Translations under genes and position numbers: made by a program
IMG/VR virus record: IMGVR_UViG_3300028139_000001
Span: 19,516-83,515 of that record
Strand: one strand, 5' to 3'
Origin: a virus
Lineage: Duplodnaviria; Caudoviricetes
DNA length: 64,000 nt
Part shown: positions 1,097 to 61,200 of the stretch, piece by piece
Numbering within the stretch: position 1 is the first letter of the stretch
Layout of the letters: each line of letters opens with the position of its first letter
Notes under the pieces: generated by a model
The model's input: only the letters and a program-made list of their open reading frames with translations
What the model was told of the DNA's origin: nothing
The model's database searches: none

Positions 1097-27006
<25,910 letters not shown>

Positions 27007-27165: not shown

Positions 27166-30100
27166 GATGCACCTAGAGCTTGAGGACTTTACTTCCAAGA
27201 TAGTGCTAGTCCACAAATGGAAGCGATAGTAGAATTACATGACAACATTATGTTTTACTTAGTAGCCATTTTATTAGCTGTTGGGTGATTACAAGCAGCT
27301 ATAATTAGAAACTTTGATAGTTCTAAATCTCCTATTAGTCTTAAATATCTTAAACACGGTACACTTATAGAGTTAATCTGGACAATAACTCCAGCATTAA
27401 TATTAGTACTAATAGCTTTCCCTTCTTTTAAATTATTATATTTAATGGACGAAGTTACAGATCCTTCAATGTCTGTATTAGCAGAGGGTAATTTAGATGG
27501 CCCTAAATCGTATACACTATATAAAAACGAAGACATGATAGCACTAGCTGTTAAAAATATAAATATGCTGGCATTTCCTATTATTGGTAAAAGAAATAAT
27601 ACCATTAAAAGTTTATGCCTTAACCAAATGAAAACTTTAACACTTAACCGAATGTTCTATAATAGAGTTAAAGCTCCTTCTAGAATAGGTCCACATGACT
27701 GAGACGTAATTTCAGTTATAGTTGGTTCACTATTAGGCTTAAATAAAAGAAAATATTGTTCTAATCATATAGATTTATTCAAAGATAATAAATTGCAATA
27801 TAGATTACATCCTAATTGAATAACAGGTTTCACTGATGCAGAAGAAACATTTATTATTTCTATACTTAAAAGTAAAGATAGAGCATTAAATTGAAAAGTA
27901 ACCCCTATATTTGCAATAGAACTTCATGGTAAAGATATAAATTTATTACAAATAATTAAGCTCTTTTTTGGAGTAGGTAATATAATAATTAGTAAAAGAA
28001 ACGGACACGCTATATATTCTGTAAAGTCTGCAAAAGATATTTATTCTTCTATTATACCACACTTTAAGAATTACCCTTTATTCACTCAAAAACAAGCAGA
28101 TTTTATTTTGTTTACAAATATTGTAGAACTAATTATTCAAAAACAACATCTATCAGAAGAAGGATTAATAAAAATTATAGCCTTGTGAGCTTCTATTAAT
28201 AAAGGCTTATCTTCTGAGTTATCTAAATCCTTTGCAAATATTAAACCTATTGCAAGACCTGTAGTTTTATTACCGGGTAACTTTAATATGTTTTGATTTA
28301 CTGGGTTTATTGACGGAGATGGTTCTTTTTTTATAAATATTACTAAAGGTAAAACTAAGATAGGTTATGTTATAAGTTTGAATTTTAATGTTACTCAACA
28401 TATTTGTGACAGTGTATTATTTCATTTTATCCGAAAAGGACTAGGTTGCGGTATTGTTTTTGAAATTAGAAAGGATAATAGAGTTAATATTGTTGTAAAT
28501 AAATTTACAGATATAACAAATATAATCATTCCTCAGCGCAGCAGACTCAGTCTTCGAGACGTTGTCTCGAAGACGCCGAGGATTTTTGATAAACATTATT
28601 TACAAAGTACCAAACTTTATGATTTTAAAGATTTTAGATTAGCTGCGGATTTGATAGAAAAAAAGGAACATTTAACTATTAAAGGTTTAGAAAAAATGAG
28701 AGAAATAAAATCTGGTATGAATACAGGAAGACAACATAGTGGATTGTCTATAGAAAATTCTAATATAAAAACTAATTTATTTATTGCTCAAAAAAGAAGT
28801 TTTCATACTAATGTAAAAGCTATTAATAGAATAGGACCTCACAATAGTGATATTATTTCTGTTATAGTTGGATCATTATTAGGTAAAGCTAAAGTCATAA
28901 GATCCATAGGAGGTACTAGGCTTTGTTATAGACAAAGTTCTTTACATAAAGAATATTTATTTTGACAATACAATTTTTATTTAACCAGAAGATATTGTTC
29001 TAACTCACAGCCTAGGTTGTATAAAAGAGAACTAAAAAATAAAGGTGGTGACAATAAAATTTATTTTGGTTATGAATTCTATACTTATTATTTTAGAAGT
29101 TTTAATTGAATCCATAAAATGTTTTACCATAAAGGAAAAAAGGTACTAAAAATGGAATCTAAATATTTTACTCCTCTCTCTTTAGCTGTGTTTTGTATGT
29201 CTAGTGGTAAGTACATAAACAATAAAATAGAATTATCCACTAAATTTAATAAAGAGAGCGATATAGATAAATTAGTTAACATATTAATAAATTGTTTTGG
29301 TATTTATTGTAATAAAAAAAAATGTTTAGGTAGAAAAGAGTTTTATACTATAATAATTCCTAAAAAGTCGGTAAAGCTATTACAAGCTATTGTTTTACCT
29401 CATATTCCATGCAATATTTACAGTAAACTATTTTATGGACATTCCCATAGAGTTAGCTTGGGCAGTGGTTTTAAACGTTTATCTTCTTTTATTAAAAATA
29501 GTAAAGGATACTCTAATAAAAGAGGTCTTCATACTATTAATAAAGCTAACACAAAAATTTCTCTTAATCCTTTTTGAATTACGGGTTTCGCAGATGGTGA
29601 AGCTAAGCTAATTTCACAATATTGATCACTAAAAGTAAATCATTAAAATTAGGTGTAAGAGTACAGCCGTCTTTCCAAATTTGTCTACATTTAAAAGATG
29701 TAGACTTATTAAGAAGATTAAAAAGCTATTGAGGGGTAGGTGATGTTTATTTACAGAATAATTATTGTATATACATGGTTAATTCTTTTAAAGATATTCC
29801 TATTATAATAGCACATTTTGACAAATATCCTCTTTTTTAAGTCAAAAACAAGCGGATTTTAATTTGTTTAAACAAGTATTTTATTTAATACTTGAAAAGC
29901 AACATTTAACTTCTGAAGGTTTGTTAAAAATAGTTAGTATTAAGACATCATCTAATTTAGGTTTACCTGACCGTTTGAAAGAGCAGTTTCCAAGTATAGT
30001 ACCTGTAGTGAGACCTGAAGTTACAGATCAAACAATTAAAGATCCAAACTGAATATCAGGATTTACAGCAGGTGAAGCTTGTTTTAGAATTAAAATTAAT

Positions 30101-33100
30101 AAATCTAAAACTAAAATAGGACATACTGTATGATTAAAATTTACAATAGCTCAACATGTTAGAGATGTTAAGTTACTTAATAGTTTAATTGACTATTTAG
30201 GGTGTGGATCTATAAACAAAGCAAACAACTGTATTGAGTTTGTTGTGACAGGTTTTACCGATATTCGTTTTAAAATTATACCTCAGCGCAGCAGCCTCAG
30301 TCTTCGAGACGTTGTCTCGAAGACGCAGACGCCGAGGTTTTTTGAAAAATACCCTTTTCATAGTGCAAAGAGTTATGATTTTCAGGATTTTTGTATAGCA
30401 GCTAAATTAATAGAGGAAAAAGCTCATTTAACTCAACAAGGTTTTGAAAAATTATTAGCTTTAAAACAAGGTATGAACAGAGGTAGAGAGGAGTAAAATA
30501 TGTTAACGGAGATATAATCAATTACATTACACCTTTATCGTTAGCTATCTGAATTTCAGATAACGGAGGTTGAGCTAAACCTGGTGTAAGAATAGCTACA
30601 AATAATTTTAAATTACATGAAGTAGAATTTCTAGTTAAACTTATCCAAAGTAAATTTCTTTTAGAATGTATTATTCAAACAGATGGGTCAAAATCTTAGA
30701 ATAACAAAACTATTTATATTAATGCTAGTTCAGTTTCCAGATTGAGGGAGCTAGTCTTGCCTTATTTACATACTTCTATGCGTTATAAGCTAGGTCTATA
30801 AAAATAAACTTATTTTTTTTTTATAAAGCTCTTCTAATATATAGGTATACGATAGTCGAGAGGTAAAACATGGTTTTACTTCTAAGTTTCCGACAGGATT
30901 CTTAGAAAAAAGGTTAGTCTTTTTGTTAGTGTATTATTTTATTAAAATTTTATTTCTAATAAGTTAAAAGATTAGTTTTTTTTCTGGCAACACAAGTGTA
31001 AACAGTTAAATATTATTATTTTCAATATCACACCTTAGAGGATATCCTAGGTGGCAGATGATAATACAAGACTGTCTGAGATAATTATTATTATTTTGGC
31101 AACAGACTGGGTCACTTGTGGGTGTCATTATATTGTCACTTGTAAGTGTAAATATATCTGATGCTTATTGTACAGTCGATAGTTCACTATAAAATGCTTT
31201 ATTTAATATTTCTATTTTAGTTATTTGAAATACACTTTGTAGAGAATAAAATAGCCATTAAGATAGCTGAAACCATTTGATAAATAGGATCCTAATAAAC
31301 ACCTTTTTCATATGGTTAGAAGCAGTAAATTTAGCGTTTAATTTAAAGTAGGTTAGTTTTGCACCAATGATATTGAAATTACGAATACCCAGATTTCTTA
31401 AACAATGATGGAGATTTCGTTGAGTTTGATTCTTACTCGGTAGAATTGGATTCGATTCAACTTAAATCTACTTTACCGTCATTTAATCAATTAAATGCGT
31501 CATTAGATTTACCTAGCCCTCCTACCAGAAATATAACGTATTATCCGGACAACGATCTTTTTGAAAGGCTTGAAAAACAAAAGAATCATAATTTATATAA
31601 GCCATTTAATTATGATAGTCCTCGTTGAGATAGTGATAGAATACTAGATCAAACTCTTAAAGATAGAGCTGTGTGTCTTGCAGAAAAATCTGGAAATTTG
31701 GGTAAAGATGGTTACTACATAAAGGAATATACTACTGGTTCAAAAAAAGGTCAGAGGGTCGTTTGTTTGAACAATAATAGTATCATTGCGGCACGTTTGT
31801 TGGAAATAATAAAAAAATAAAATATATAAGCTGTAGGTTAGTTTTGCACCAATGATATTGAAGTTACGAATACCCAGATTTCTTAAACAGTGATGGTGAT
31901 TTCATTGAGTTTGATTCATACTTAGTTCCTGAATCTGATTTAGAAGATGGAGCGTTAAGAATGTTAGAAGTAGATAACCGTGTTATCCTTCCTGAAATTA
32001 CACACACTAGATTTATTCTTACTGCTGCAGATGAACTGAGTACCTTTAGCAAGTAACTCTTAACGTCTATACATTATCAAATTCCGGGGACACCCTAAAG
32101 ACCTTTTAACTAAACGTTTATCTCAAAAGGTTAAACGTGGCTATGTTAATGACCATAGGTATAGTAATATAAAAAGGTATATACGAAAGTTAAATGGGTT
32201 ATCGTGGATCTAAATCACCTAGTTACCTTATTTGGTAACCCTACAATCTTGTAATTCACGCTACAGCTGCAAAGAAAGATTGCTAGGCTACATCATTATA
32301 GTGCAGTAGGTTGTAAAAGAGCAACGAGTAGACGGTAGTGGTCTATAATAGTAAAAAAGGGTTACACTCAACTATTATAGATTAAGGTATACTCTAGTCG
32401 ACCTGATAATAGGTCGTTGGGTTTATAGCTATACCTAAAATCTAAATATTCTAATTATTAATTAATTAACGCAATGGAGTAATGATTATGTTATTTGGCG
32501 GTGGTACATATGGGCAGAGATTTTTAAATAAAATGAAACCAGATTATTAGATCATGGTAAAGTAAGCTCTCGGTTAAGTGTTCTTTTACTTTACTAGTGG
32601 TAAATAAATATTCTGGATACCCTGGACCACGTAATCTAGTTTCTGTGCTTAAATACAGTATTCTTTTTAGAAGAACAAGAACTCTACCCAGTATCTATGG
32701 TTGTAGGTTTTATTCGGAAAATAACCACAATCGTATCACAAGTGAAGTGATTAATAAAGTACTATCTAATCAAGGTGTTTCTATTACACAAAAGGAACTG
32801 AATGTTTTGTTAACTATTAAGGGTGTAACTTTTGACTTACCCTTCAATAGTCAAACATTACCAGCTTTATTTGGTTTGGTAGGTAAACCTAAAAGCAGAA
32901 GACCTAAATCCGGTATATATATTTTTACACACTTAGCTACAGGTAGAAAATATGTGGGGTCAAGTAATAGTATTTCAAGAAGATTAGAACAATATTTTAA
33001 CCCTAATCCTTTATTTTATAAGGAATATGGTTTATTACTTCCTTTGATTAAAAAAGAAGGGGTAAGTAACTGCTTTTAATCTGGAAATATATGTTATGCC

Positions 33101-36100
33101 GGAGGAATTAAGCTCAGATTATAACTTTTTGTTTTTGGAGCAATATCACTTATTAGATAGTAATTTTAACTTAAATACTCAAAGAGTTGTTAATTTTAGA
33201 GTTAATCAAGGAAATACTGTTTATCTATATGATTTTGAGGGTAAGATTTCATATTACACTGCAACTTCTTTAAATGGATTGAAAGCTCATTTAGGTATTC
33301 ATCATTCTACTGTTACAAAATGTATAAAAACCGGATTACTTTATCTAGATTATTTCATAATTACAGATCAACTAAAATCAGATGCAAAAAAAGCTGGTTT
33401 ATCTTTAGAAGAGTTATCTAATTTTATTTCGGACAAAAGATCTTTATTTCGGCTTCGCTTAAAAAAAAAAGAAATGTGCAACAGTTCTTTTTTTTTTTTT
33501 ACCCAGTCTTCGTTTTGAAAGAACGACGACGCCGGGGCTAAAAAAATATTTTTCTTTGAAAAACAGTAAATCAATCTATATTAAACAAGATGTTACAGGA
33601 GTAACACACAATTTTCCTAGCATAACATCATTAGTTAAATACTTTGATAGAATAGATATTAAGGCTAACCGTAATAAGATAGCTAGTTGTTTAAATACCA
33701 ACGAATCTTATTTAGGTTACACTTACTATACTGATACAACCTAAATATTACCAAACTATAAACATTTGGTGATTACTAGCCTATAAATAATAGAGTTCGA
33801 GTTCCAACAAAGTGTTATAATAATAAAATATTTAGATCATGGAAAAGTAAACTATCGGTTATCCATTCATTTGCGATTCCAGCATTAGGAGTAAAGTGTG
33901 ATGCATACCCGGGTAGATTAAACCAATTCTCTGTTCTTATTAACAGATTAGGAACATTTTATGGTCTTATGGCCTAAACTTTAGTGAACCTTGAGTTCTA
34001 AACTATCAAATTGTCGGGAACGCCCTAAAGCTTTCATAACCAAGTAAGAGTAGTAATACATTTTATGGCGCAGGTAATGACTCGCGGTATGGTGAAATCA
34101 TGAGAGATAATTTAATGGGTAATCCGCAGCCAAGTACCTAGTATTTTTTTATTTTTTTTTTTTATTAGGTATGCAGTTCATAGACTAGACGGTAGTTGGT
34201 ATTATTACCATTATAATGCTTAAGATATAGTCAAACCCCTCCTGAAAAGGTGCAGGAAAGTATAATTATTATATTTTTTGTTAATTAAACATACATATTT
34301 GTTAGTTTGTTTAGGGATAAATTTTTACGATCGTTTGCTAAATTTTCATTTTAATGTGTATAATTTTTAAGTTATTATAATTAATTGTATTTTATATTTT
34401 TATTATAACATTTTCAATCTTAAAGTTGTTTATTATAGTATTATAATGCATAAGTTAATTAATAATTATCTTTTATTAGATTCAAGTATAAGTATATTAA
34501 TTTTTAAAAGAACTTATAATACTACTGCTACTAAACAATCTGAAGAATTTAATCCAGAATTCTTAGCGTTAGAACATATTAATAGTGGGAATCCTACAAC
34601 TGCTTCAGTAATTAATAATATATTGTTAAATCAAGCTATCGCTGTTACTGATTCTAAATTAAAAGATTTATTAAAAGTTGAAGGTGTAGGATTTAACTTA
34701 TATTTATCTAGTTCCCCTGTAGCAAAAGAAGATTATAAACTTTTTTCAAAGTTAACAGGTAATTCTAGCTATAAAGGACATTCGGGTGTGTATATGTTTA
34801 TCCACAAGACAACAGGTCAAAAATATGTTGGTTCTTCTAATTTGTTAAGACGTAGAATGGATTATTACTTTAAGGGAGATTTTTTTTCTTTAACGGGTAA
34901 ATTCTTACCATTGCTAACTCAAAAAGGATTAGGTGCTTTTAAATTAATTATCTTTAAGTTAGATAATAATAAATTTAATGTTAAAAATGCGTTAATTTTA
35001 GAACAATATCATTTATTAAGTAAAGAATTTGATCTAAATACTTTAAGAGTAATTAATGCAGGGTCTTCAAAAGGTGAAAGTGTTTATGTTTATGATTTAA
35101 CTTGTAGTACTCTTTATTATCATGCTTGCTCAAGAATTGAGTTAAAAAGAAGATTAAAAGTTCACCCAGAAACATGTAAAAAATTTTTAGATTCAAATCT
35201 TCCTTATCTTAATAGATTTTTATTATTAAGTGGTTTAATATCTACTGCGGTTAAAAGTAATATGTCTGTTCTAGAATTACTTGAAATAATGCAAAAAGAA
35301 AGACAAATTACGTATACATGAGGTACACGAAGAAATATTTCCGTTATCTTAGAAATTAAAGATGGGAATAAATTTGTAGATACTTGAGGCCAAACTCTTA
35401 AATTTGAGTCTATAACTACATGTATTAACTACTTAAGAGATCTAAGGTTAATTATAAAAAGAGAAACTCTTTCTAAATATATAAAAATTGAAAAAGAGTT
35501 CCACCATTTTTTATGTAAATATTCTGATAGTACTAAACCTGATAATTTTGAAGAAGTAGGATTAATTATAGATGAATACAAAAAATTATGAAAACAAGAA
35601 TTAGTTGATATTCCTGGTTAATAAAAAAAAAATAGACCTGTATTAGTAAAAGGTCCTTATTTTGAAAAAGAGTTTGAAACTATTACAGATACAATTAAAT
35701 ATTTTGAGTCTATTGGTATTAAATTAGATAGGAAGTATTTAACTATTAAATTAAAAAATGGTGAACCCTATAAAGGATATTATTTTAAGTAAAAAAATTT
35801 AACATTAAAAATCATAAAAAAAATTTGCAATGTTTAATTTTAAATGTTAAATAAAAACCCCCAAAGAGAAGGTTCTCCGTTTTCTTATAGAGGTTATTGT
35901 CATAATAGAAGCTATAGTACTAATGATTATATAAATAAACTTAGTGAAAAAGTAAAAACGGAGTATGACAATTTACCAGATTACTCTGTAATTAAACGCC
36001 CAGAATCTTTGGTTTATTCTAGAATGGTTTTGTCTTATTCAGATGTAATTGTAACTTTATATGGTTTAGTTCCTAATAAAGAAATGAAAGATTATTTTCA

Positions 36101-38182: not shown

Positions 38183-38245
38183 TAACTACATTTGTGTAGT
38201 TAAAAAGCTTACTGATATTATTTTTTATAATATCAGTTAACGATG

Positions 38246-38323
38246 ATCTTACACAGTTTTATGCCCATTATTGTAGAATCTGTATCTATCGAGAAATTCC
38301 TTTCTTGGTTACGAGAACAATAG
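38246..38323 (+). pseudogene. Second (displaced) copy of the cox2 3' end
   Basis: [25 protein letters not shown] versus used [25 protein letters not shown]. Confidence 0.92.
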
Positions 38324-40226: not shown

Positions 40227-43200
40227 ATGAGATTTTTAAAAAGTCATCCGATTTTTAGATTAGGGAACGATTTCTTAGTGGATTCACCGCAACCTATTAA
40301 CTTAAGTTACATGTGAAATTTTGGTTCTTTGTTAGCTTTTTCTTTAATTATCCAGATACTGACTGGAGTAACCTTAGCGATTAATGGGTTGCTATAAAAT
40401 CTTACTGTATGCTGGAACACCCTGAATATTAAACTTAGGGCAATCAGCAGGAAACTTGTAGATCTTTTAACATTAACAAGATCCTCAGAGACTATGCGTA
40501 AGACAAATATTATATAAATAATATGTGAAGATATAGTCCGTCCTTTTTTATTGAAAAATAAAAGGTATGTTATTTATTTATTATTTTTATTGCTATGATG
40601 TTAACTTTTTTATTTATATCTGGTAATTATAACTCTAAGTTATCAAACTATCGTTCTAGAAACCGCTCGTTTATTAAAAAGGTAAATAGAGAAAAACAAA
40701 TTAGATTTTATAGTACTAAAAATAAAGATATGTGTAATTACTTAAATCCCTGATGAGTCACTGGTTTTGTATTATTTTTTTTTTCTTTTGCTTAAATTAA
40801 CCATTAAACACTGCAAAAGAAAAAAAAAATCAGCAGAAGGTTCATTTGCAATGTCTATATTTAAATCAAAAACTGCTGCTATAGGTTGGACTGTAGAACC
40901 TTGTTTTATTATTACTTTACACGTGAGAGATTTAGAATTATTAAACTCAATTAGAGGTTTTTTTTCTGTAGGTTCAGTTTTAATAGTGGGGAATGATGCA
41001 CGATTTAGAGTCAGATCTAGATCAGAGCTTAATGTTATTATTGCTCACTTTAATAATTACCCTTTACAGACAACTAAAGCCCTAAATTTTACATATTTCT
41101 GTGAAATACTTAATTTTATTAATAACAGAGTTCATACTAACATTCCTGGATTTTTAAAATTATGTTCTTTAATCAATAAATTGAACAAACCCCTGTCTCA
41201 ACCACTTTTAGATAAATTAGCAGAAATAGGTCCTTTACCTAGTGTAGAGTTTGAAACTTCTCTTAACTTAAGTGCCTCAAACATAGAACAAGTCTTAAAT
41301 CCTTACTGAATCTCTGGGTTTGCATTGTTTTTTTTGACGTTATTTCTTTCAGAAATTACTAAAAAAAAACTAGGTGAAGGTTGTTTTACATATTTTACAA
41401 AAACTCGTGTAAATTCTGCAGGTAAAACAGTTAAGGATTATTCTCTTGTGTTTGAAATAAGTCAGAGAACACAAGATTTACACATATTAAATTTAATAGC
41501 TTCTTATTTTAAAACAGGTAAGGTTTATACTGACACTAGTCGTATAAGCAGATACAGATTACGTACTAAAGATCCAATCAGTAATACATTAATTCCTCAC
41601 TTTAAGAATTATCCTTTAGCCGGTCATAAAGCTTTACAGTGTTCACTTTGATTTAAAATAGTTTGTCTTTTAAACGATCAGGTAAGAACAGAGCAAAGAG
41701 ACATAGAGTTAGAAAAATTAATAAAAGAGTTATCTGATTTAAAATAGAAACAATAGATAAATATACTTTATTATACTAGATAATGGCATTACAATCCTAG
41801 TGTATTAGAAGCATTTAACAGTGTAGAGCATAGCGTAATGTGCTCTTTAAATCAACCTATATGCTGGAAGTTCCTAAAGCTTAAAAGATTAAACTTCGCT
41901 TACGAAGTTAATTAAAATCTTTAAGATGTATATGGATAATCAGCAGGAAACCAAAGTAATTCAATTACGAGTAAAATCCTCAGAGGCTATACGGTTGACA
42001 TATTTATTATATGGTGATATAGCCCTATATTGGTTGAAAGATCAATAGTTAAAGATTAATCCATTATACATATTTAATGGTATAATATTATTGCCTAGTT
42101 ACGTATCGGGTCATAAAAATAAAATGGGATTTTGTCACTTATCTACTAACTGTAATAAAAATTCTAATGTACGTACTGAAGACAACTTTTTGAAAAATGT
42201 TTCCAGCGAGTTCTTATATTGATTTTCAGGATTCACGGATGCAACTAGCCGAAGAAGATATAGCACTAATATATCAAGTACTAACAACGAATTAAGTTTA
42301 GTAGTTTGAGGTACAAATTTAAGGTCTCAAGTAGGTACTGGTAAATATACAAAGTTAGTTAGTTCTATTATAAAATTACCGAATTATAATAAGAGTATTG
42401 TAATAGGATTATTATTATCAGATGGTTGGTTAACCTTTGCGAGTAAAACACATAAAAATGCACGATTAGGGTTTAAACAAACTATAAATAATGCATCTTA
42501 TGTATGATATGTTTTTAATGAATTATCTCATTATTGTAGTAGTTACCCTTATTACGCAGAAAGTAAAAGATCAGGAAAAGTATCTTATAATTTAGGATTT
42601 TTTACTCGAGGTTTGCCATGTTTCACTGAATTATACCCATTATTCTATATAAATAACATTAAAATAGTACCAGAAGATATCTATAATATTTTAACTCCAG
42701 TTGCTCTAGCTCATCTTATCATGGGAGATGGTGGATTTAAAAGTAAAGGTATTTATATTTGTACTGACTCTTATACTATTCAAGATACAGTACGATTAAT
42801 GAATGTATTAATCATACGTTATGATTTTAAATGTACTCTTCATAAAGCTAGTAATAAACATGGATATAGAATATATATATCTCGAAATTCATTATATAAA
42901 GTAGAAAAGTTAGTTAAACCCTATTTTATACCCAGCATGTATTACAAACTAGGAGGATAGTCCCATCTTAACTCCTTTGTTTCATTTAGTTATAAATAAT
43001 CCTACTTTTTAATATCGATAGATCGTCAGTATGTAAGATTTAGATTTAAAATATCTTTGCACATGGATGATGTAGAAGTTCTTAATACAATAAAATCTAA
43101 TTTAAATGTAGGTACTGTTACAGTAGAATGTAGTAGAAACAGTTGTTCTTATGTTATACAAAATAAGGAAGAAATTAAAAATGTCATATGCCCTATCTTT

Positions 43201-46200: not shown

Positions 46201-49200
46201 CTTTAAAAATTACATTTTAAATTTTATATTTATATTCTTATATAAATCATAGTCCCATGAGTAAAAATCTTTTTGCAATTTTTATAAAAAAAAAAAGATT
46301 AAAGTGGTATAGCCCGACGGGGTTATAGAATAATATTTAATATTATTTGGCGATATTAGTGAATACGGTTAAAAAAGATTAATAAACTTTAAGACCGTCG
46401 GCTATATAAATGGCCGCTACAGACTGGGTCACTGATGGGTGGCTGAAATGCTGCTTAATGTACAGGCGAAACTTTTAGTTAGATGTGTTTAACTAATAAA
46501 ATATACGAATTCAAAGTTATTTTAGCTTATTGTTAATATATTAATAATAAATAAGTTTGAATGTGTTACCTGAAGGTTATCATGAAAATATGCAACTTTA
46601 CCATCTATCTTCAACATTGGTGTTTAATTCGTTACCAGAAGAAGTATTAAAGAAAAAAGTAAAAGATTTAGAATGGTTATGTGGGTTTTCAGAAGCAGAG
46701 TCTATGTTTTTTATTTCTTCTACGGGGGCTTTATCCTTTAGAATAAAGTTACATTGAGATGATAAGGAAAGTTTAGTTTATATTAAAAATTTATTAGGTG
46801 AATTAGTTGGTCGGAATGTAGGAGTTATTGTAGATTCTAAAGATAAACATGAATCGTACTTTACGTTGGCTAATTTTAAAGATATTCAAGAGATCCTTAT
46901 TCCTATTTTTTCAAAATATTATTTTACTACTTCAAAATATTTAGATTTTCAAGATTTTAAATCTGCGGCTGAAATAAAAAAAGTCTCTTATTTAGAAAAA
47001 AGAAAATTAAATCAGGTAGAGTTAGAAAAAATCTTAGGTTTAAAATCAAGTATGAATTCTCTTAGAAAACATTTTAATAATAATAACCTACCTAAGCGTA
47101 GCTTAACTTCTGATAGACTTTTAGGTTTTGTAGAAGGAGATGGAACTTTCTGTTTACCAAATATGATTCCTTATTTTGGAATTAAACAACATTCTAAAAA
47201 TATACACTTTTTATATGAAATAGCGGAATTTTTGAATAGTTTACCATATAATCCTGAAATAGGGCCCCAAACGGACAAATTAAACACTAAACCTACGGCA
47301 GGTGTACACGAGCCCGATCTAGTTACAGGGATGGCCTCTTTAAGTGTTAGTAATATACTGCAACTCTATAATTATATATTACCTTTTTTTAAATCTTTGG
47401 AGTTCAAATCAAGAAAGGCTGTAGATTTTAAATATTGAGAGGTAGCAGTAAAACTTAAAGCTTTAGGTTATACTACTAAATCTGAAGGTAAGAAATGTTT
47501 AATAGAAATAAGCAAGTGTATGAATAATAAACGTTATTCTACTAATATTGAAGCAGGTAAAACCCTAAACTTAGATGTAATTTGTAAAATTTTTGACTCT
47601 CCACCTATATATGATTTAGCTTCAGGTTTATCTTATAAAGCTTACTCAGATATAGCTAAAGTTTCAAAAAAAGGTAATATAGGGTTTGGTGTAAACGTAT
47701 ACGATATGGATAAATTAGTAAAAGGTTCTCCTTTTTCTTCTTATACTCAGGCAGCATTAGCTATGGGTAATATAAATATTTCTTCGGTAATATCTAAAAA
47801 AATAGATACAGGAAAGTTGTACAAACAAAGATTTACATTTGAATCTTCTGTTTAATTTGACACTTGATAACAAGATTTACACATCCTTACTTACAATAAG
47901 TAAGTATGTATGTTTTACCCTGTTAGCCCCCTTTAGCAAGGGGATTTGAGGGGGATAGAAGCCAAATTCATCGGGGAAACCCTAAAGACTTCAAAACCAA
48001 GCCAAAATGGAAGCAATAGACAGCTGGTGGCCCTATTAATGACTAGGGGTACGGTAATATCTTGAAGTATTGTTTAATAGACGAATGGGCAATCCGGAGC
48101 TAAATTCTGTATAAACAGATAAAAGTGCAACGAGTAGATGGTTTCTTGCCTAATCACCGTATCAATAAATACTGATGAAATACGAGGAATAACTATACAT
48201 AGTGGTTAGGTATAAGGTGTACTCTAATAGCCCCCCAGGGACGCTGGGATATGTAATAAACTGAAAAGGGGCGTTATACTACTAGCTATTTGCGTACTTT
48301 GAGGCATAATATGAGAATGATATAGTAGGTAATTAGCTGGATATCACTAGAATCGGAGAAAATACTTGAACTGGGTGATAGTAAACGGATATGAATTACA
48401 CGAACTCGTGTAGTGAGAGAGATCCTTAGTACCCTGATATATGTATTATATTGATTATGGTTTTGCGGATTAGACTATACTCATACCTCTTAAGCAAGAA
48501 AGTAGTCAAACCGTGATGGGCAGATGTCCTTATGAGGTGCAACAGTTAAACAGGCGAAGTAATAGCTGTTGTAAAATACCACTAATTGCTGGAAACTCTT
48601 AAAAGACAATCAGCAGGAACCTATGTTAAATATAGCGCAGCTGTATATAACGAATTCAACTTTTGGTTCTTCAGAGACTACACGTGGTACATTTTTTTAA
48701 TAAAAGTAAAAGCATTTAAATACGTTTTATAAAAGTAATTATATAGTTAAAAAGATGAAGATATAGTCCGATCCGCTAACGAGAGTTAGCGATAGGAGAG
48801 TCGCGCCTCCACCTTTAGATAAATTTATCAGTATCTTCCCATTTTTTAATAGATACTGGGTTGCAAATTACAAAGGTTTATGTATTACTTTTTTAATCGC
48901 ATCTTTTTTATTAGATTGTTATCAAATATGTTTTTATACTCATCTTCCCTATAAAGGGGAAAAGGGTGAGAATAAAAACGATAAGGTTAGTGATTTATCA
49001 ACAGATGTCCATAAAGTATTACCTAAATTACCTATAGATAGTAATTTTATAGAATGATTTATAGGCCTTTGTGAAGCGGAATCTAATTTTTTAATAAGGA
49101 CAAGAAAAAATGAAAAAGGAGAAGTAGGAGGTTTTGAATTTGTATTTAGAATAGCTTTACACCTAGACGATAGAAAAATATTAGAAGACATAAAAGATGT

Positions 49201-52200
49201 TTTAGCTTGCGGTAGATTAAATACTGAGAGAAACACTTTAGTATTTACAATATCTCAATTAAGTGATATTGAAACAATATTAATACCTTTGTTTGAAAAA
49301 TTTCCACTAAATACAAGTAAATACTTGGATTATTTAGATTTTAAACAAGCATTTTTCTTATTTAAAAATCGAAAATCTAATGAAGAAGGTGTACTGCAAA
49401 TTTACTCTAATATTCTTGAATTGAAACAAAATATGAATTCTAATAGAGTTAATTTTGTTTTACCTGCAAATCATAATATAAGAATTACAGGTAATTATTT
49501 GGTAGGGTTTTTAGAAGGAGATGGGTCATTTTACTTAAATAAAAAAGATATGACTGTTCGTGTTTCACTGGTCACTACTTCAGTAAATAGACAAGTTTTA
49601 GAAAAAATACGTGAATTTCTTTTAAGTTTATTAGACGAACACTCTTATATGTTAGGTAGTACTACTAAACTAATAAATATTTCCGATAAAAAAGTAAAAA
49701 GTTATTTTAGACCTATTTCTATATTAGAAATATACCAAATTGATTTTATTCATAATATATTAATTCCTTACTTAGATAGTGTTGAATTTAGAACTACAAA
49801 ATTTAAAGATTATTCAGATTTTAAAACAATAGCTATTTTAATATTAGAGGGTAAACATTTAACTGAAAAAGGTAAAGAGTTAATAATAAAACTGGGAGAT
49901 TGTATGAATGATAACAGATTATCTACAAACTTAAACCCTCTCATATTGGATGAAAGCGTTACATCAGAATTAGACCTTTTAATTAAAGCAGAACCTTTAA
50001 TACATATTGATTCTGAGGGTAGAGCAATTATAATTTCGGAAAAAAAATACATTAGATCTACTTATATTATAAAAGCTTATTTTTTTAATAATTCTTTTAA
50101 TTATTTTACTAATGGAATTTCATGTGCTAAATTTCTTCATGTAAGTAATAATACTATAACTGCTCGTTTAAATGATGGTAAACCTATAAAAAATAAACAA
50201 GGTTTAGTAGTCGCTAAACAAATAAAAAGAATAAAAGCCTACTCTAAATCCAATTTTTCTCCTAGTTTTTTTTAGTAATTTCTGAAAGAAATTACGTCAA
50301 AAAAAAACAATCCGCAGCCTCAGCCTTCCAACCGTAGGTTGGACTTATAAAATTTCTAGCCTTACGGCGTCGAAATTTTATAAGCCGAGGCTATTAAAAA
50401 TTAGTTAAAGCAACCATCTTATTGTGAATTTTGTATTACTAATCTTATGAGTGCTATTCCTTGAGTAGGACAAGTCATCATCATTATAAGATTAACTCTA
50501 ATACTTTTTAGCCCTCCCACATTTTACATGTGGGGGGCAAACAGCTATATACTGAATATGGCTAATACAAGTATCGAACCTTACAAATATACTAAAAAGG
50601 CATATAACACTTTAACTTGAACTAAATCTAAAAATCTTAAACCCCTTTTTATTCGAAATTATTCTACTGGTAACAATAATTCGACATTAGTGGAGTTAAA
50701 CCCTGATTTTGTTTCTGGGTTTATAGATGCAGAAGGTTCATTTACTACTGTAGTTTACTATAAAAATCGCTGATGTACTAACTCTGTATTTAAAATTACT
50801 CTTCATAAAAAAGATATTGATCTTTTAAAAGCTCTGCAAGCTTTTTTTGGCGGGGTGGGTAAAATATCAGGTAGTGAGGTGGTTTCTTATAGAGTAGAAA
50901 GTGTAAATAGTCTTGTTAATAATATATTTACACATTTAGATAAATATCCTTTGCAAACTCAAAAAAAAGCAGATTATGAGCTTTTTAAACGTATTGTAAT
51001 GTTGATGGATAAAAAACAACATCTTACTGGCGAAGGGCTACAAAAAATCATAAATATAAAAGCTGCTCTTAATAAAGGAGTTTCTGAAGAATTAATGGCG
51101 GAATTTCCTGACACTGCTCCAGTTTCTAGACCTTTAGTGGAATTACCTGAAGTACTAAATATTAGACCTCACTGGTTAGCTGGTTTCACAGCTGGTGACG
51201 GTTGTTTTTTTGTTTACGCAGAAAAAGATTCTAAATATAGTTCTGGTTTTCGTTCTAAATTAAGATTTAATATTTGTCAACATTCTAAGGATAAACTTTT
51301 GATGGAGCGTATAGCATCTTATTTTAACTGTGGAATAGTGGCCGAAACTGCCAGGGGTGAAGTTAACTTCGATGTTCATAAATTCTCAGATATTTATGAT
51401 ATTATTATACCTTTTTTCACTAAATATGCTATTCACGGAGTTAAATTTCAAGATTTTGAGGATTGAAAATCTGTAGCTGAATTAATGAAAATTAAAGCTC
51501 ATTTAACTAAAGAAGGAATAGAAAAAATTATCCTTATCAAATCTAATATGAATAAATCGCGTGTAATTAGCTAATTAAGGTAAATTATTTTATTTTTGTA
51601 AAATTTTTGGCCTTAAATATTATTTTTTTTTTTCAACGTTAGTTGGAATAACTAGAAAAAATTACCAGTCGATAAAAAATGGCAATATGGATTTTTAGCC
51701 TTTCTACGGTACATCTCGTGAAAATAAATGTGTATTTGTATGTAATATATTCCGGATTTAGTATCCTTTTGTAAATAGAGTATAAAAATAATGAATTTGA
51801 GTATGACATACTGAATAGGTGCACTTATATGATATTATATTTATTTGATGGGGAATTTCCCCTGGGCAGATGTTAGTATATAAACTGCTCAACTGTTATA
51901 TACTATTCATCTTGCTACTAATGTTAAATTAGTAAAACAAAATATTTTAAGCTTATTAAGAGTGTATTACTAATCTTATGAGCGCCATCCCTTGGGTTGG
52001 ATCAGATTTAGTTGAGTTGAAAGAAATCACAGAAATTTCTTTAGAAGTTATCTATTTAAGTAGTTTACCTGTAATAGGTACTGTACACAAAAATGCTTTA
52101 AAGAAGGGAATAAATAAACCTAGACTAGAAAACCAAGAATACCTTAATATTCCTTCATCTTTTTTGGCTTTTTTTGCCGGACTAGTTGATGGAGACGGAT

Positions 52201-55200
52201 ATATCCAAATAACCAAAACAACTAAAGGATTTATAGCTATGAAACTTGTTATATCATTACATTTAGAAGATATTTCTACCCTGGAGTACATAAATTCAGT
52301 ACTAAAGGTAGGAAAATTAAATATTTATCGTGATAATAGAAGTCCTACTTGTAAATTAGTTATTAATAGAACAGATTTACAAGAGATTGTGTTTCCATTG
52401 TTTTTATATCATAATATATTCTTTTTAACTGAAACTAGAGCAGATCAGTTCAATTTAGCTATGCATATTTTAAATTATGATATAAGAACTTTTGATAATA
52501 TTCCTAAAAATATCCCTGCTTCTTTTGAATTATTAAAAACACCCTTGGATTATACAAAACTACTTTTCTTTAGAAATTGAATCGTGGGATTTGCAATGTC
52601 CGAAGGTTCATTTTTCGTGAAAGCAAATAATGACGGTTGTTTTCAGTTAAAACAGAGAATACACATTAACTTATTTGAAGCTTTTAAACTAGTGTTTGCT
52701 ACAAATAGAAAAATAGCCCTTGCGTCTTCTTTTGACTGGGGCTGCTTTGCTGAAACAGAAAAAGGACTATATAACCAATTACCCCAATATACAGGTTTAG
52801 TTGAATTTACCAAAGCAAACCCTCTAACATATAAAAGAGTAAAAAAAGACTTTAAAAGATTATGTTCTAACAAGGAAACTTACAATTATATTAAGAGAAT
52901 TTACCTATTAAAGCAAAGGAAACTAAATGCTATTAAAAGGGAACATTATTGTACCTATGCAATTAAACCAAAAAACACTGAGATGGTATTTTTTGGTTCA
53001 ACAGTTGAGACAGGTCATCTTACAAATAGAGTAAATAATATGAACGTAGGATTACCGTATAATAAAAGTATGAAGGTTTCGCTAGGAAGACTTTATAGTA
53101 CTTTTTCGAACCTTTCCGGTAGTAGCGAAGCTTGTTTAATAGATCATCAGGATAAATATTTTTATGAATGATTATGCGGGTTTGTTTTATTTTTTTTTCT
53201 TTTGCTTAAATTAACCATTAAACACTGCAAAAGAAAAAAAAATCAGCTGAGGGTTCATTTCATGTTTATGATAAAGATGATGCAAATTTTGGATTTAGAT
53301 TCCAGATTGGTTTGCATGTTGATGATTGTCAACTATTGTTCTTTATTCAGTCCAAGCTGGGTATAGGAAAAGTTACAAGTTATAAAAATATGGCTTATTT
53401 TAGAGTTTCTAGTCAAAAAGAGATTTTAGTTATAATAGGTATTTTTACTACTTATCCTTTAAACTCCACGAAACATCTTAATTTCTTATCTTTTAAAAAA
53501 GCTTTTGAGTTATATACAAATACTCATAAGAAAACTTTGGAGGTAAAGAAAGAAATCCATAATATTTTAACCAATATGAACACCCTAAGATACGATTATG
53601 AATATCCCGAATCTAGAGTTTACAGAATAACTCCTTATTGATTGTTGGGATTTGTTTTTTTGACGTTATTTCTTTCAGAAATTACTAAAAAAAAACTAGG
53701 TGAAGGTTCATTTTTTCTTCTCAAAACAGAAAAATACAAATTATCGTTTAATGTTAGTCAGTCTGCTAGGGATTTACCCTTATTGGAGGAAATAAAAATC
53801 TTCTTTAATAATTTACGCCTTGATAGTTCTGTAAGCAAAGAGAACAATAGTGTAGCTTACATTTACGAGCAGAAAGGTAAAAATACTTACTTTTTAAGTA
53901 TTACCTACACCGATTACATAAAAAATGTTCTTATCCCATTCTTGGACTCTATGGCTTGGCATAGTAAGAAGGAATTAGATTATATTGATTGAAAAATGGT
54001 GTTAAAGCTTAAAGAATTAGGGCATCACTATACAGAACAAGGACTTAAATTAATATCTCTTATTTATAATCAAATGAATAGTAGAAGATTATCAACTAAT
54101 CCAGATAAAGAGACGGTTGTTGACAGAAAACTTATGGATGTTGAAACTAATAAATTATTAAATGCACCTTCTAACTTTGAAATAAAAGAAGATGGAAGAA
54201 TATGAATTAAATCTTTAAATAGATACTATTGAGAGGGAAATAATATAGAGGTTCAACTTAAAGATAAAAAGGGATTACTGATTAAGACATTTAGTTCTAT
54301 TGCTAGTTGTGCAAAATTCTTAGGAATTCACCCTGCTACAGCTAAAAATAGATTACAACATCACAAGGCTGTATTATTTAACAATAAAGAATTATATATG
54401 ACGAAAAAAGACAGTACATAAGGGTGAGCATGCCTAAATAAAGCATACTCTTCTAAGTCTGATATACAAAAAGTAATAAATTTCTTTTCATTTTCTGGTC
54501 TACATCCTTTAGTTGGGCGTCGTTTAATTGAATATTTAACCTGGATAGATACTCTTAAAAAGCATAATCGTATAGATTCTAAAAAAATATTACATAGCAG
54601 TTTCTTATATAGTAATCAAGTTATTTTCTGAATCCTTTATCTAGTTTATATCATAATATATTGCATTTATCCTGAAGGAGATACTATTTTAAATGACATT
54701 TGTTTAAATATAACTCCTTTAGTGTTGTATATTAATGCAGATAAAGATAAGGTTATAGCTATTAAGAACAATAGAAAAAAATCGGGTATTTATAGATGAA
54801 CACATAAAGAATCAGGAAAGTTTTACATTGGTTCAGCAGTAGACCTAGGACGGCGTTTTTCTAACTATTTTTCTTACCCTTGTATAATTAGTCAAGCCAA
54901 AAGTAGTATTATTTGTAAATCTCTTTTAAAATATGGGTATTCTGAGTTTAGTTTAGAGATTATCGAATATTGTGACATTAAAGATACAATAATAAGAGAA
55001 CAATTTTATATTGATTCTTTAAACCCGGAATATAATATATTAAAAATAGCAGTAAGAAAAAAAAAAAATAAAAAAATATAATTTTTTTACTTTTTTTTCT
55101 AACACGGTTGGGTTCTAAACATTCTGCAGAGACCAAGGCTAAAATTGTATTAGCTTTAACTGGACGTAAAACATCTCTTACTACAAAGAGTAAACAAAGA

Positions 55201-58200
55201 ATAGCCAGACTAGGTATACCACATGACGATGCTACTAGAGCAAAATTAAAAGAGCATTTAACTCAATTAAATAAAAATATGCTTGCTAAGAAAAAAGGTA
55301 TAAAAGTAACTGTTCTTGATTTAGAAACCAATGTTACAAGTGAGTATGACTCAATAAGAAAAGCAGCCCAATCTATAGGTAGTTATGCTAATGTTCTCAT
55401 TAGACATGAAAAATTACAATTAGATAAAGGCTATACAAAACCTTTTAAAGACCGCTATGTAATAAAAATAAATAGAATCTAGGATTAAAGGGTATTCAAT
55501 ATATCAAATGATTAAATTCTTTACGTGCAAGTACACGTTATAATGGTCTTACTTTTCCTGAGGCAGTATTATAGTATATTGGTTATACGTTTGATTGTCT
55601 CTTTTCAAAAAGAATAAACTATGTGATTAATGGGCTCCTTGAAGCAGTAATGTTTCAAAGGCAAATGGGGAAAAGTGCAAGGACATATAATAAGCATACT
55701 CCTATTTATTATATAATTTGCAGCGGAACTTGGTTCGGTTTTTCATAATGAATGAATCAAGAACGTTCAACGACTAATGAGTGAGTTATACCAACAATAA
55801 GCTCGACACGAAAACCCCAGGACCAAATAAAATGTTTGGTCTAAGATATAGTCTAAACATAAGTTAAACCTTATGAGATTGGGGATTAAAAACCCAATAT
55901 AAATCTATGGTCATTTGAGGAGGTTTAAAAACAGTTGAACCACACTATGGTGACATAGTGTTAAAAACCCTGCTTAACAATCCTGGGAACTCTCCTAATT
56001 TAGGATTTGCATACGATTTATTCTTGATGGGTGCGACTTCATCAATTATTCACGTGAAAACTGCAAAAACATGGAGAAAATCAGTGGGGGTGAGAAGTTT
56101 ACATACTTCAGTAGCCTCTCAGAGACTACACGCAGGGGATCTTTACTACGCTTATTTAGTAGGTTTATTTGAAGGTGATGGGTTTTTTAGCGTCACAAAA
56201 AAAGGAAAATATTTAACATATGAATTGGGTATTGAATTATCCATTAGAGATGTACAATTAATATATAAGATTAAAGATTTATTGGGTATAGGTGTTATAA
56301 GTTTCCGAAAAAGGAAAGAAGTTGAAATGGTATCTTTAAGAATTAGAAATAAAGATCATCTAAAAAATTTTATTTTACCTATATTTGATAAATATCCTAT
56401 GTTTTCTAATAAGCAGTATGACTATTTATGATTTAAGGAAGCATTACTTTCAGGAATCATTTATTATGAGGATTTAGTACTTTATTCTAGAAGCATTGTA
56501 CCTTTGAATACAGTTGAAACTATTACTAATGCATCTTATTTTTCTGCCTGGCTGGTTGGATTCATAGAAGCTGAAGGTTGTTTTAGTGCATATAAAAATA
56601 ACGATAGTTATCCAATAGCTTCTTTTGATATTAGTCAAACTAATGGGGATATTATAATTTCTGCTATAAAAAAATATTTCTCTTTTACTACTGCTGTATA
56701 TTTAGATATAACTAATAATTCTAAATTGAAAGTTACAAGTGCAAGATCTATAGAAAATGTAATTAAATTTTTAGCTAAAGCACCTGTAAAATTATTAGGT
56801 AATAAAAGATTACAATATTTATTATGATTAAAAGAATTACGTACAATACCTAGATATTCTAAACTTGTTCCTTCGAAATATTAAATAAACCCAATATATT
56901 TAAGCGTATATTCCTCTCTCCTCAATCAATTGAGCAAAGAGGATAAAAGATCAAGATATAGTCCGATCAACAAAGAAATTTGTTGGGAGTAGTGAGAGTG
57001 TTATATATATATAACATAGTGACTACCAACATAAATGTTCTGTTAACAATGCTACATTAAATAGATTCTTCTCATTACACTTCGTTTTACCTTTTGTATT
57101 AGCTGCTTTAGCTCTAATGCATTTAATAGTTTTACATGACACCGCGGGGTCAGGAAATCCTTTAGGTGTATCAGGAAATTATGAAAGAATACCTTTTGCA
57201 CCTTATTACATATTTAAAGATCTTATTACAATATTTGCATTTATATTTGTATTATCTTTATTTGTTTTCTTTATGCCTAATGTGTTAGGTGATAGTGAAA
57301 ACTATGTTGTGGCAAATCCTATGCAAACTCCTGCAGCTATTGTTCCGGAGTGATAAAGAGAGATGTCACTTAATCTCGCTATTTGCTGGAAGTTCCTAAA
57401 AACAGGATAATCAGCAGGAAACCAAAGGACCACAGGTCCATCTTTTTTAAAAATGGGATCCTCAGAGGCTATACGCGAGACATATAAATATTTTTTTTTA
57501 TGAAGATATAGCCCAAACATAGTAGTAATATTATGAATATAAATATGAATATATTTATATAATCAATATGATCCAGACACCAATTTATTTTTCTCAGTTA
57601 TCACTGTTCGTAGTGCTGCTAGTTCAACAAAAGGTATCGTACGTTTATCATCAGCTCAGAGAGCTGATATGACAATGTCAGATGAATTAAGAGAAATATT
57701 AGTTGGTATTTTACTCGGTGATGGCTGAGTTTGCAAAATTGTGAAGTTAACTATATATTTAGCCTTTTGCTATTTGTTAAATATTAGCTTAGATAATACA
57801 GCGTTAACTTTAGATCCTTATTATACTTTATCGATCATACCTGTTTTAGTTTATTATGAGCCTAAGCTAGACAAAGCATCTATTTTAACAGAAAATAAAG
57901 GAAAATCTGGTTTTTCTACAACAGGTCTTAATCCTTTTTATGTTACAGGTTTCACTTACTTTTTTTTTACATATATAAATATATTAAAAAAAAGTTAGCA
58001 GAAGGAAGCTTTCAAATTAAAATTAGTCAAAATAAAAGCTCTAAGATAGGTTGAACAGTTGATCTTAGATATACACTAGTTTTACATATAAAAGATATAG
58101 ATTTGTTAAAAAAGATTCAAAAATTTTTCGGAGGAATAGGTAAAATTAGAATAGAAAGAGAAGAGCTTTTTGTTTCTTATACTATTTCTTCTTTAGAAGA

Positions 58201-61200
58201 ATTAACAGTAATAATAGAACATTTTAATAGTTATCCTTTAATAACTAAGAAACAAGCAGATTATCTTCTTTTCGAACAAGCTTTTGAATTAATGAAGTGT
58301 AAAAAACATCTTACTCTTGAAGGGTTACATTCATTAGTAATGATAAAAAGTTCAATTAATAAAGGTTTATCTGAAAAATTAAAAGATAGTTTTCCTAATG
58401 TTGTACCAGGATTAAGACCAAAAATTTCTCTTCCAAAAAAGATAGATCCTTATTGATTATGTGGATTTACTGAAGGTGATGGGTGTTTTGGTGTTGAAAT
58501 ATATAAATCTAAATCTACTAAATTAAATTATTCTGTAACTTTAAGATATAGTTTAACTCAAAATAGTAGAGATCATTTACTATTAAGTCATTTAGTGGTA
58601 TTTTTTGGTTGTGGTAAAATAAAAGAAAATCCAATAAATAATGCAAGTTATTTTTATGTATCTGATTTAAAAAACATTAATAATAAAATATTACCTCAGC
58701 GCAGCTGCCTCAGTCTTCGAGACGTTGTCTCGAAGACGCCGAGGTTTTTTAAAGAATACTCTCTTCAAGGTTCAAAAAGTTTAGATTTTAATGATTTTCA
58801 CAAAGTAGCTTTATTAATAAATGAAAAAAGACATTTAACAATAGAAGGATTCGAACTTATAAAAAAAATTAAAAACGGGATGAATAAATCTAGAATCTAT
58901 GAGTAAATTTTAATATATATGAAAAAATAAAATTAACGGTAAAAAGTATGTAGGTAGCAGTGCAGATTTATCTAAAAGATTAAGAAGGTATTTTAGGATA
59001 TCTTATCTTACAGATCTAAAAGATATTATGCTTATTTATAAAGCTCTATTAGCTCATGGCTTTGATAACTTTACGTTAGAAATAGTAGAGTATTGTGAAC
59101 TTTCAAATTTAACAGAAAGAGAACAACACTATATTGATCTATTAAAACCAGAATACAATATTTTAAAAATTGCTGGCTCAATATCTGGTCATAAGCTTAG
59201 TGAAAAAACTAAGGCCAAATTAAGGGCAGTAGCTTTAGGTCGCTCAGAAGAAGCTTTAGCTGTTTGCCCCCCACATTGTACATGTAAAATGTGGGAGGGC
59301 TAAAAACAGAGAGCATCTAAAAATACTTAACGCTAGCCAAAAACATAAAGACCATTTGGCTAAGCTTAATGCTTCTCTTGAACATATAGCGATTCATGCT
59401 AAACCTGTTATCGCAATAAATACTTATAATGGAGAAAGTATGGAATTCAGATCTATGACTCAAGCAGCAAAACATTTTAATATTCACCCTGAAACAATAC
59501 GTAGATGTATAAAAGCCGACAAGCTTTTATTAAATAAGTATAAAATATCACAAAAAAGTTAATGTTGTATCTATTTTAATATTAATAGGAGTAATCTATA
59601 TTAACTCTTATTTGGTTTATAGTCTTCATTTTAAATGAACGATCTATTTCCAACATAGCAAGAAGGTCCCCTACTAGTAATTCTAGATTAACATACGCTC
59701 AAACAGCTGTGGCACATAAAGAATATTTTGACTATGTATTTAGTTTCTTTATTCCTTTTTGTGTTAATGGTTATAAACCTCATTCTAAACTAGTTAGAGA
59801 CAATAGAACTAAAAAATATATAGTTCTATAACCTTCACTACTATGCAACTTCCTTGTTTTAATGGATTTAAAGATATGTTTTATGTAGATAACGTTAAAA
59901 AAGTACCTAGTGATATTTATGAATTGTTAATACCTAAAGGGTTAGCTTTTTGAATTTACTTTTTCACGCTTTTTCTTAAAATATTTTCTTTTTTTTAAAA
60001 AGAACTGTTGCACATTTCTTTTTTTTTAAGCGAAGCCGTTAAAATAGGGAAAAGCTTTCTGGCATTACTGTAGAATTAAAACTGATAAGAATAAATTGGT
60101 ATCTGGATCAGTGATAGTTTATATAGGTGTAATTTTGTTATTTTTAAAACAAAAAAAAAATTACTATTTTTTAAATTTCCAGCACAGCAGCCCCAGCCGC
60201 AGGCGACCGGGGCTAAATTTAAAAATATATATATTTAGTTGATTTTAATTTTGATCTTAACTGTTTAACATTTACGCCTTTTCTTTCTTATAATGATGCT
60301 CTTTCTAATAAAAAGAAGGCCATTAAAGAAAACGAAAAAAAGTCTGGTATTTATCGCTGAACTAATTTAACTAGTAATAAGTCATATGTTGGGAGTAGTG
60401 TAAACTTAGGTAGAATATTAAGAAGTTATTATAATCCTATTTACATTGCTCATATTTCACGTAAGAGTATGATTATAAATAAAGCTCTTATTAAATATGG
60501 CTACTCTGAATTTAAGTTGGATATACTTGAATATTGTGATCCTAAAGATCTAGTTAAAAGAGAGCAATATTACTTGGACCTGTTATCTCCAGAATATAAT
60601 GTATTGAGATTTGCTTATTCATCTTTAGGTTATAAACACACTAAAGAAAGCATGATTAAATTAAGTAAAAATCTTGCTAATTTAAGTAAATCTATTAAGG
60701 TTAAAGTAACTAATTTAGAAACAAATGTTTTGCAAGAATATACTTCTTTAAGAGAGGCTGCTAAAATTTTAGATACTAATAAGACCACTTTAAGAAAATA
60801 CATCCTAAATACTAAACCTTATAAAGGTTTATATGAATTAGAATCTAACCTAACTGTTTCTAATTATGATTCTAATTATGTAAATCATCCTAATTCAGTT
60901 CAAATTGAAGTGCAGGATTTAGAATTAAACACTATTACTTCCTATAATTCTATTCATGCAACATCTAGAGCTTTAGGTATAGGGCATAATACAATATCTA
61001 ATTTTTTTAAACGTAATCAAATTAGACCTTATAAAGGAAGATATGTCTTTAAAAAAGTGGTCTAAGCTTTTTTTTGATGGTAGCCGACATGGTACTGGAC
61101 TACATCTAAGCGTTTATGCATTTACTAATGAAGACGTAGATACCAGGTAAAAAAGTAATAAAGCCATATTGTCATGTTAATTTAATAATCTGTCGATCTT

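Follow-up and report, generated by a model that had tools for sequence, protein, structure and literature searches.

The window analysed here, a stretch of 64,000 nucleotides (nt) covering positions 19,516 to 83,515 of the IMG/VR virus record IMGVR_UViG_3300028139_000001, harbors a family of short GC-rich hairpin elements (family D), several of which are inserted into homing endonuclease genes (HEGs). The window is AT-rich as a whole (28% GC overall, 26-34% along its length) and was read as fungal mitochondrial DNA with genetic code 4 (TGA = Trp). It comprises the tail of cox1 fused to cox2, cob exons, one tRNA and a group I intron core, accompanied by numerous LAGLIDADG and GIY-YIG open reading frames (ORFs). 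The public runs in which the window sequence occurs are phyllosphere metagenomes.

Three hairpin copies at one codon junction of LAGLIDADG genes

Three members of family D interrupt the C-terminal domains of three diverged LAGLIDADG genes at the equivalent position, as had been claimed in a preliminary description of this DNA. A 48-nt copy (28534..28581, + strand) places 16 residues between IIP and IFDK in HEG1 (27790-28737), the LAGLIDADG_1 gene of a cox2 intron. This gene has an uninterrupted reading frame in phase with cox2 exon 1. The second copy, at 30284..30337 (+), is 54 nt long, corresponding to the 48-mer with a tandem AGACGC, and adds 18 residues between IIP and FFEK of HEG2 (approximately 29558-30496). 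The N-terminal domain of HEG2 is spread over three reading frames; therefore, this gene is a pseudogene. The third copy, again of 48 nt (58697..58744, +), contributes 16 residues between ILP and FFKE of HEG3 (approximately 57890-58906), which is frameshifted in LAGLIDADG motif 1. Each copy is one base off the common sequence (in the 54-mer apart from AGACGC), and identities between the copies amount to 96-100%. The junction is identical in all three cases, lying after the proline codon CCT and before the (A/T)TT TTT of IIP-FF/IF in a LAGLIDADG_1 domain (Pfam PF00961). Since the first base of the element is C and its last base G, with T and A/T as flanking bases, these junctions are not shiftable.

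Only HEG1 looks whole, with both catalytic motifs kept. Its AlphaFold model (pLDDT 91.8, pTM 0.88) consists of two LAGLIDADG domains of the I-OnuI-like fold and superposes on I-PnoMI, I-LtrI, I-SmaMI, and I-OnuI at a TM of about 0.9. Besides the first three residues, the insert (residues 249-264) is the only segment modeled with low confidence, and it is positioned between a shortened helix alpha-3 and the FxKY turn. Mapping of the insertion point on this predicted LAGLIDADG structure, suggested in the preliminary description, locates it at the end of helix alpha-3, in a predicted disordered loop. This helix faces away from the DNA-binding sheets in the known topology of the I-OnuI-like fold, so that a disordered surface loop of 16-18 residues is plausibly tolerated at this place. 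The end of helix alpha-3 in I-OnuI-type C-terminal domains may hence be a surface position accepting such a loop, which could be of interest to enzyme engineers if tolerance is shown; otherwise, the case would amount to the usual degeneration of selfish genes that are invaded by smaller selfish DNA.

Census, architecture, and folding of family D

The motif CAGCRMAGC occurs five times in the window compared with 0.25 expected occurrences, a count reached in none of 100 shuffles. Looser scans with GCAGCCYCAGYC for the 5' stem and GACGCCGRGG for the 3' end recovered the same copies and additionally those at 50313-50391 and 33502-33538, resulting in seven members, all of them located within 28.5-60.2 kb of the window. 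The members share a 5' tail (CAGCRMAGCAG) and a terminal inverted repeat (GCCYCAG...CNGRGG(C)) surrounding a variable interior, bearing out the proposed GC hairpin family with conserved ends and swappable interior. With lengths of 33-79 nt, they are short (<100 nt) GC-rich islands without coding capacity of their own. No transposase gene turned up in the window, a search aimed at one not having been made.

A perfect 11-bp stem (GTCTTCGAGAC GTT GTCTCGAAGAC) is present in the 48- and 54-mers, whose folds have a z of about -3 relative to shuffles. In the non-coding 79-nt copy (50313..50391, +), the outer stem GCCTC...GAGGC surrounds two hairpins, one of them GC and the other AT-rich (z -5.5), and the double-hairpin interior described earlier for this copy is hereby upheld. 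For the copies at 60180, 52716, and 33502, folding did not exceed that of shuffled sequences, and these are therefore relics.

Dispersed copies with common ends and differing interiors also exist outside the window, at the loci L010, L013/L090, L032, L056, L064, and L112. A metagenome pattern scan, yielding mostly chance matches in GC-rich bacterial contigs and at least about eight informative AT-rich loci, revealed different interiors between the same ends at other loci among the matches listed. Nesting of an AT-rich hairpin in the outer stem of the GC element was found both in the window copy at 50313 and in the copy at L032.

The inserts are a derived state of their host genes

Comparison with homologues demonstrated that the inserts are derived. 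Eleven aligned relatives of HEG3 lack the 16 residues, exactly at P|FF. The insert is present in one 99%-identical record and missing from relatives with 68% and 60% identity. Likewise, 38 of 38 homologues aligned to HEG1 are free of the insert. Compared at homologous sites, the homologues of three host genes are without insert and paralogous sites are empty, such as ATTATACCT|TTTTTCACT, encoding IIIP|FFT in a paralogous C-terminal domain (51404..51427, +), and the corresponding sites of further paralogous domains after bases 10040, 15710, 46904, 47384, and 15239.

In a tree of C-terminal domains, the domain of HEG3 groups with the insert-free P0007 from elsewhere (98% support). Insert-bearing domains appear in at least 3-4 lineages of this tree, which is based on a quick search and poorly resolved (60 of 122 forks open), weakly suggesting that they are non-monophyletic. 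The host domains differ by 0.3-0.8 changes per site, the element by about 1 nt. These data support the interpretation of the insert as a recently copied element with a strong site preference. An assembly artefact was rejected for the elements themselves, as they were found in DNA and RNA contigs of many runs as well as in independent ENA and JGI assemblies.

Further occupied junctions outside the window

When the peptide surrounding the 54-nt copy served as query, the same 18 residues were retrieved at the same P|FF junction in other genes. These are P0126 (..NKIIP|FFEKYSL), P0127 (..NVVIP|FFKNYPI), an intron ORF fused to a nad-type exon, and P0128 and P0131, which are cluster members combining other upstream or downstream halves. 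P0127 is encoded on the same 206-kb JGI contig as the proteins of the window and therefore belongs to the same mitochondrial genome, outside the window. In total, at least five or six distinct P|FF junctions are occupied. Within the one 90% cluster to which P0127, P0128, and P0131 belong, one half is common while the other differs, the switch being situated exactly at the GC element. This change of partner reflects either real recombination or assembly mis-joining at a repeat of 48-54 nt, within which Logan contigs are indeed interrupted.

Target site and proposed integration

After removal of the inserts, the motif WWWCCT|WTTTTT is present only nine times on both strands of the window, and five of these nine sites are at IIPFF codons. 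The recurrent IIP|FF site preference put forward in the preliminary description stands insofar as the same junction is used in at least five to six genes, but can largely be explained by this short motif. Where a paralogous site has CCA, CCC, or CCG rather than CCT, no insert is present. In contigs from other fungal mitochondria (among the matches listed), CCT also precedes related elements that share the 5' tail but are located outside LAGLIDADG P|FF sites, namely two copies in apparently non-coding DNA of L010 and those at the start of a GIY-YIG ORF in L013/L090. Around the three filled sites, flank identity is 62-70% over 30 nt per side, filled and empty sites being 55-67% identical in pairwise comparison. 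The flanks diverge already 4-6 nt from the junction, and there is therefore no conversion tract.

We favor a reading in which an element defined by the terminal inverted repeat GCCYCAG...CNGRGGC and the 5' extension CAGCGCAGCAG would change its interior through deletions, small duplications, and the nesting of other hairpins within it. A young subfamily (48 nt; 54 nt after a 6-nt duplication) would recently have spread by copying to at least five or six sites, integrating immediately after CCT and ahead of a T-rich run (CCT|WTTTTTRA). This target would mostly be supplied by the IIP-FF codons (ATT ATW CCT TTT TTT) at the end of helix alpha-3 in LAGLIDADG_1 C-terminal domains. Since these codons provide the CCT|T-run in an AT-rich genome, repeated landing at one codon junction of diverged genes would be expected. 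With a master copy of 3n length (a multiple of three) and without TA, each copy would add 16 or 18 hydrophilic residues and no stop. The integration step may depend on a trans-acting mitochondrial enzyme or may be RNA-mediated, and the added loop would probably be tolerated by the I-OnuI-like fold. To this reading as a whole, i.e., family D as a mobile hairpin of the mitochondrial "GC cluster" type that is non-autonomous and carries no gene, with copy-and-paste integration at a short DNA target encoded by IIPFF codons, we assign a probability of roughly 0.55.

Several observations weigh against it. All near-identical copies known so far reside in paralogous genes and in one orientation, as conversion between paralogues would also give. 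Four exact 12-nt motif sites are empty, two in LAGLIDADG genes and two outside of them, and the motif accounts only marginally for finding six out of six copies at IIPFF ((5/9)^6, approximately 0.03). The three young P|FF copies show no target-site duplication, unlike yeast GC clusters (AG/TAG), and older family members are not found at CCT|T-run sites. Furthermore, no contig without the elements was recovered over 42000-61900, and no empty allele of the same species was seen; with k-mer contigs breaking inside the repeat and the raw-read run X21 barely covering the region, this result says little on polymorphism or expression.

Alternative explanations

The strongest competitor, possible yet clearly less probable, is short-patch, microhomology-guided conversion (template switching) between paralogous endonuclease genes, with a single origin and with homology restricted to ..ATWCCT / TTTTTTRAAAA... 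Conversion between the HEGs had been named in the preliminary description as an outcome that would refute a site-preferring mobile element. Such conversion would account for the homologous codon junction, the common orientation, and the missing target-site duplication of all five to six young copies, for the empty exact-motif sites outside LAGLIDADG genes, and for the exact partner switch of P0127, P0128, and P0131; moreover, yeast GC clusters are reported as hot spots of recombination and conversion (PMC8811140). However, the rapid divergence of the flanks next to the junction is difficult to reconcile with it, and the lack of co-converted sequence weakens this explanation. In addition, related elements in other fungi follow CCT outside IIP|FF, mostly in non-coding DNA. 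No copy is present at two LAGLIDADG sites whose junction microhomology is perfect, and the chimeric records may be mis-joins at the repeat in which Logan contigs break.

A second alternative, which we regard as unlikely, concerns the reading frame. It holds that 3n length and frame are kept by selection for working endonucleases or maturases, the element being adapted to coding targets. All coding copies found are of 3n length (48, 54, and 36 nt), and so are the changes among them (48, +6, 36 as 54 minus 18, and the 54 nt in L112). A run of this kind has a chance probability of roughly (1/3)^4, about 1/81, and is suggestive, but comprises few independent events. The intact catalytic motifs and the confident predicted fold of HEG1 are in line with such selection. 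Against it, two of the three window hosts are frameshifted elsewhere, the cob-intron host of the copy at 52717 lacks a conserved block of eight residues, the lengths of the three P|FF copies are not independent, since all three go back to one master, and an apparently non-coding copy at L010 measures 53 nt. The state of the hosts argues for the in-frame condition as a by-product of one 3n master rather than of selection at each site.

These data also qualify the claims made on frame in the preliminary description. The proposed lengths in multiples of three hold for every coding copy found, while the length assigned to non-coding copies (33/34, 36/37, 78/79) varies with where their ends are placed, which is arbitrary. 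All coding copies are indeed stop-free, but this is trivial: as the dinucleotide TA is missing from the 48- and 54-mers, each of the six frames is open, rendering the absence of stops an effect of composition. The notion of an element remodeling endonucleases rather than truncating them is only partly supported, as HEG1 looks whole with its in-frame insert but HEG2 and HEG3 are broken elsewhere. Metatranscriptome contigs carry the elements, although contigs inform neither on expression level nor on translation. Over 42000-61900, where k-mer contigs break inside the repeat, no RNA joint that would excise an element was seen.

A different GC palindrome was observed in L112, another fungal mitochondrial contig (approximately 1345-1400, -), read as PPPQACGGG / SPASLRGR at an FF|DKYPL junction in an N-terminal LAGLIDADG domain. 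It shifts the frame; therefore, other families do break endonuclease genes near the same motif.

Still less probable in our assessment is that the element serves as a recombination joint swapping C-terminal helices between paralogues, with P0127, P0128, and P0131 as real recombinants, or that it is integrated by a sequence-specific mitochondrial activity recognizing CCT|T5. If such module shuffling were true, an identical patch at a permissive junction would allow C-terminal helices to be exchanged between paralogous endonucleases. Finally, an ancient insertion inherited by all paralogues and kept near-identical by a hairpin function, e.g., as a signal for RNA processing or stability, was rejected: the hairpin is stable and RNA contigs carry it, but the insert is absent from the closest homologues and most paralogues, the hosts are far more diverged than the element, and several family copies are decayed relics.

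Relation to known mobile hairpins

Family D combines every defining feature of GC-cluster-type elements except a target-site duplication. It belongs to the known mitochondrial "GC cluster" kind of selfish DNA, in an unusually site-specific form, and does not constitute a new mechanism. What sets it apart is how many diverged genes carry the insert at precisely the same junction. Like the GC clusters of yeast (e.g., GC42 of Saccharomyces; var1/rps3), its members are short, gene-less, GC-rich palindromic islands dispersed in many copies over AT-rich mitochondrial DNA (mtDNA). Yeast GC clusters are mobile, have conserved ends, undergo merger and shuffling, and are inserted in frame into var1 (PMC8811140, PMC4478555). 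Both groups share conserved ends with fast-changing loops and the generation of new forms by merger or nesting (PMC4478555), as well as in-frame insertions in coding regions and a suspected target preference (PMC8811140, PMC4478555). In contrast to the yeast clusters, family D has no sequence similarity to them, resides in a filamentous ascomycete, and possesses an asymmetric 5' tail, and its young copies, free of AG/TAG duplications, are so far confined to one LAGLIDADG codon junction.

Comparison of isolates of Annulohypoxylon stygium revealed short hairpin-forming mitochondrial insertions, 18 of them in introns, with 6 of these 18 inside conserved domains of HEGs (PMC6140425). These resemble family D as hairpin inserts in intronic homing-endonuclease domains; however, that study, in which frame was not a topic, reports scattered insertions and no element recurring at one residue junction (PMC6140425). 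The byp elements of Magnusiomyces capitatus are GC-cluster-derived inserts of coding regions, which are kept in the mRNA and skipped by the ribosome (PMC8811140). Unlike byps, the coding inserts of family D require no bypass and none is indicated; translational bypass was rejected, since every coding copy has a 3n length and is free of stops in the frame of its host.

Small mobile mitochondrial hairpins also comprise the double-hairpin elements of Allomyces and the MUSEs of Podospora. For sponge and placozoan mtDNA, repetitive hairpin elements are described, which are small, mobile, and invade mitochondrial genomes including coding regions (PMC2800124, PMC7813641). All of these differ from family D by unrelated sequences and hosts, and only the copy at 50313 has a double hairpin, which looks like a nested insertion. 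Rickettsia palindromic elements are inserted in frame into protein genes, adding surface peptide segments; being bacterial, longer, and of unrelated sequence, they provide an analogy only. Compared with miniature inverted-repeat transposable elements, family D has a short terminal inverted repeat (GCCYC/GRGGC) and young copies without target-site duplication. With unambiguous junctions and at least five to six insertions at one codon junction, family D offers a clean natural data set on the target choice of mitochondrial GC-cluster-type elements.

Other copies in the window

The 36-nt relic at 52717..52752 (-) is antisense to a cob-intron LAGLIDADG ORF. Alignment with nine homologues revealed exactly 12 additional residues after TNRKI, confirming the in-frame insertion reported for this copy. 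A 54-nt version of the element, with an intact AT-loop hairpin and a near-identical 3' flank, is found in L112 at a non-homologous place in another LAGLIDADG gene, beside nad1 sequence; relative to this 54-mer, the 36-mer looks like the product of an 18-nt internal deletion. Direct repeats flank the copy at 52717. A reading of these 11-nt AAAYAGAAAAA repeats as a target-site duplication lacks backing from the protein alignment, which contains no duplicated residues. The RNA splice joints 45190>48516 and 52018>57038 place the copy in an intron. These joints carry 11 and 15 extra letters (TGTTTTACCCT and CATTTGAGGAGGTTT), possibly representing very small exons or alternative joints of cob-region introns.

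The copy at 60180..60213 (+) is a non-coding family relic just upstream of a GIY-YIG ORF, with TAAATTT on both sides; its previously given length of 33 nt becomes 34 nt with another choice of ends. The sequence at 33502..33538 (+), formerly described as composite, is retained as a family member by the looser scans, but is better read as a partial copy lacking the 5' tail (CCCAGTCTTCG...GACGCCGGGGC) in a T-run/A-run context, and is probably non-coding.

AT-rich hairpins and further repeats

An AT-rich hairpin family with the sequence GTAATTTCTGAAAGAAAT(A/T)AC lies between T- and A-runs at 22550-22570, 41339-41359, and 53665-53685 (-) and at 50275-50295 (+), the last of these adjoining the composite copy 50313..50391. 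At 50275 and in L032, a similar hairpin is located inside or beside GC elements. The AT hairpin seems to be read in frame as 18 residues inside the second LAGLIDADG motif of P0127 and P0131, and apparently also at 41318 and 53644 of the window. HEG3 contains a 41-nt AT-rich hairpin (TACTTTTTTTTTACATATATAAATATATTAAAAAAAAGTTA, 57957-57997) inside motif 1 (NPFYVTGFT|..|AEGSF), where the frame is shifted and one codon apparently replaced.

The ORF 26722-29646 forms a single open frame of 974 codons, including the cox1 tail, cox2 exon 1, and an endonuclease array. Therein, HEG1 is bracketed by two diverged copies of a 19-residue LAGLIDADG_2 gene start (approximately 27690-27745 and 28820-28880), which suggests the insertion of one endonuclease gene (or intron) into another with duplication of the target stretch. 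Tandem arrays with periods of 60 nt and 12 nt are present inside an intron ORF region at 11889-12185 and 12440-12559. A second GC-rich repeat, GCCTCCCTCAAGCTGAGCCCAGCCCTTCGGCTAG, occurs in opposite orientations at positions 1-34 and 22293-22340 of the window.

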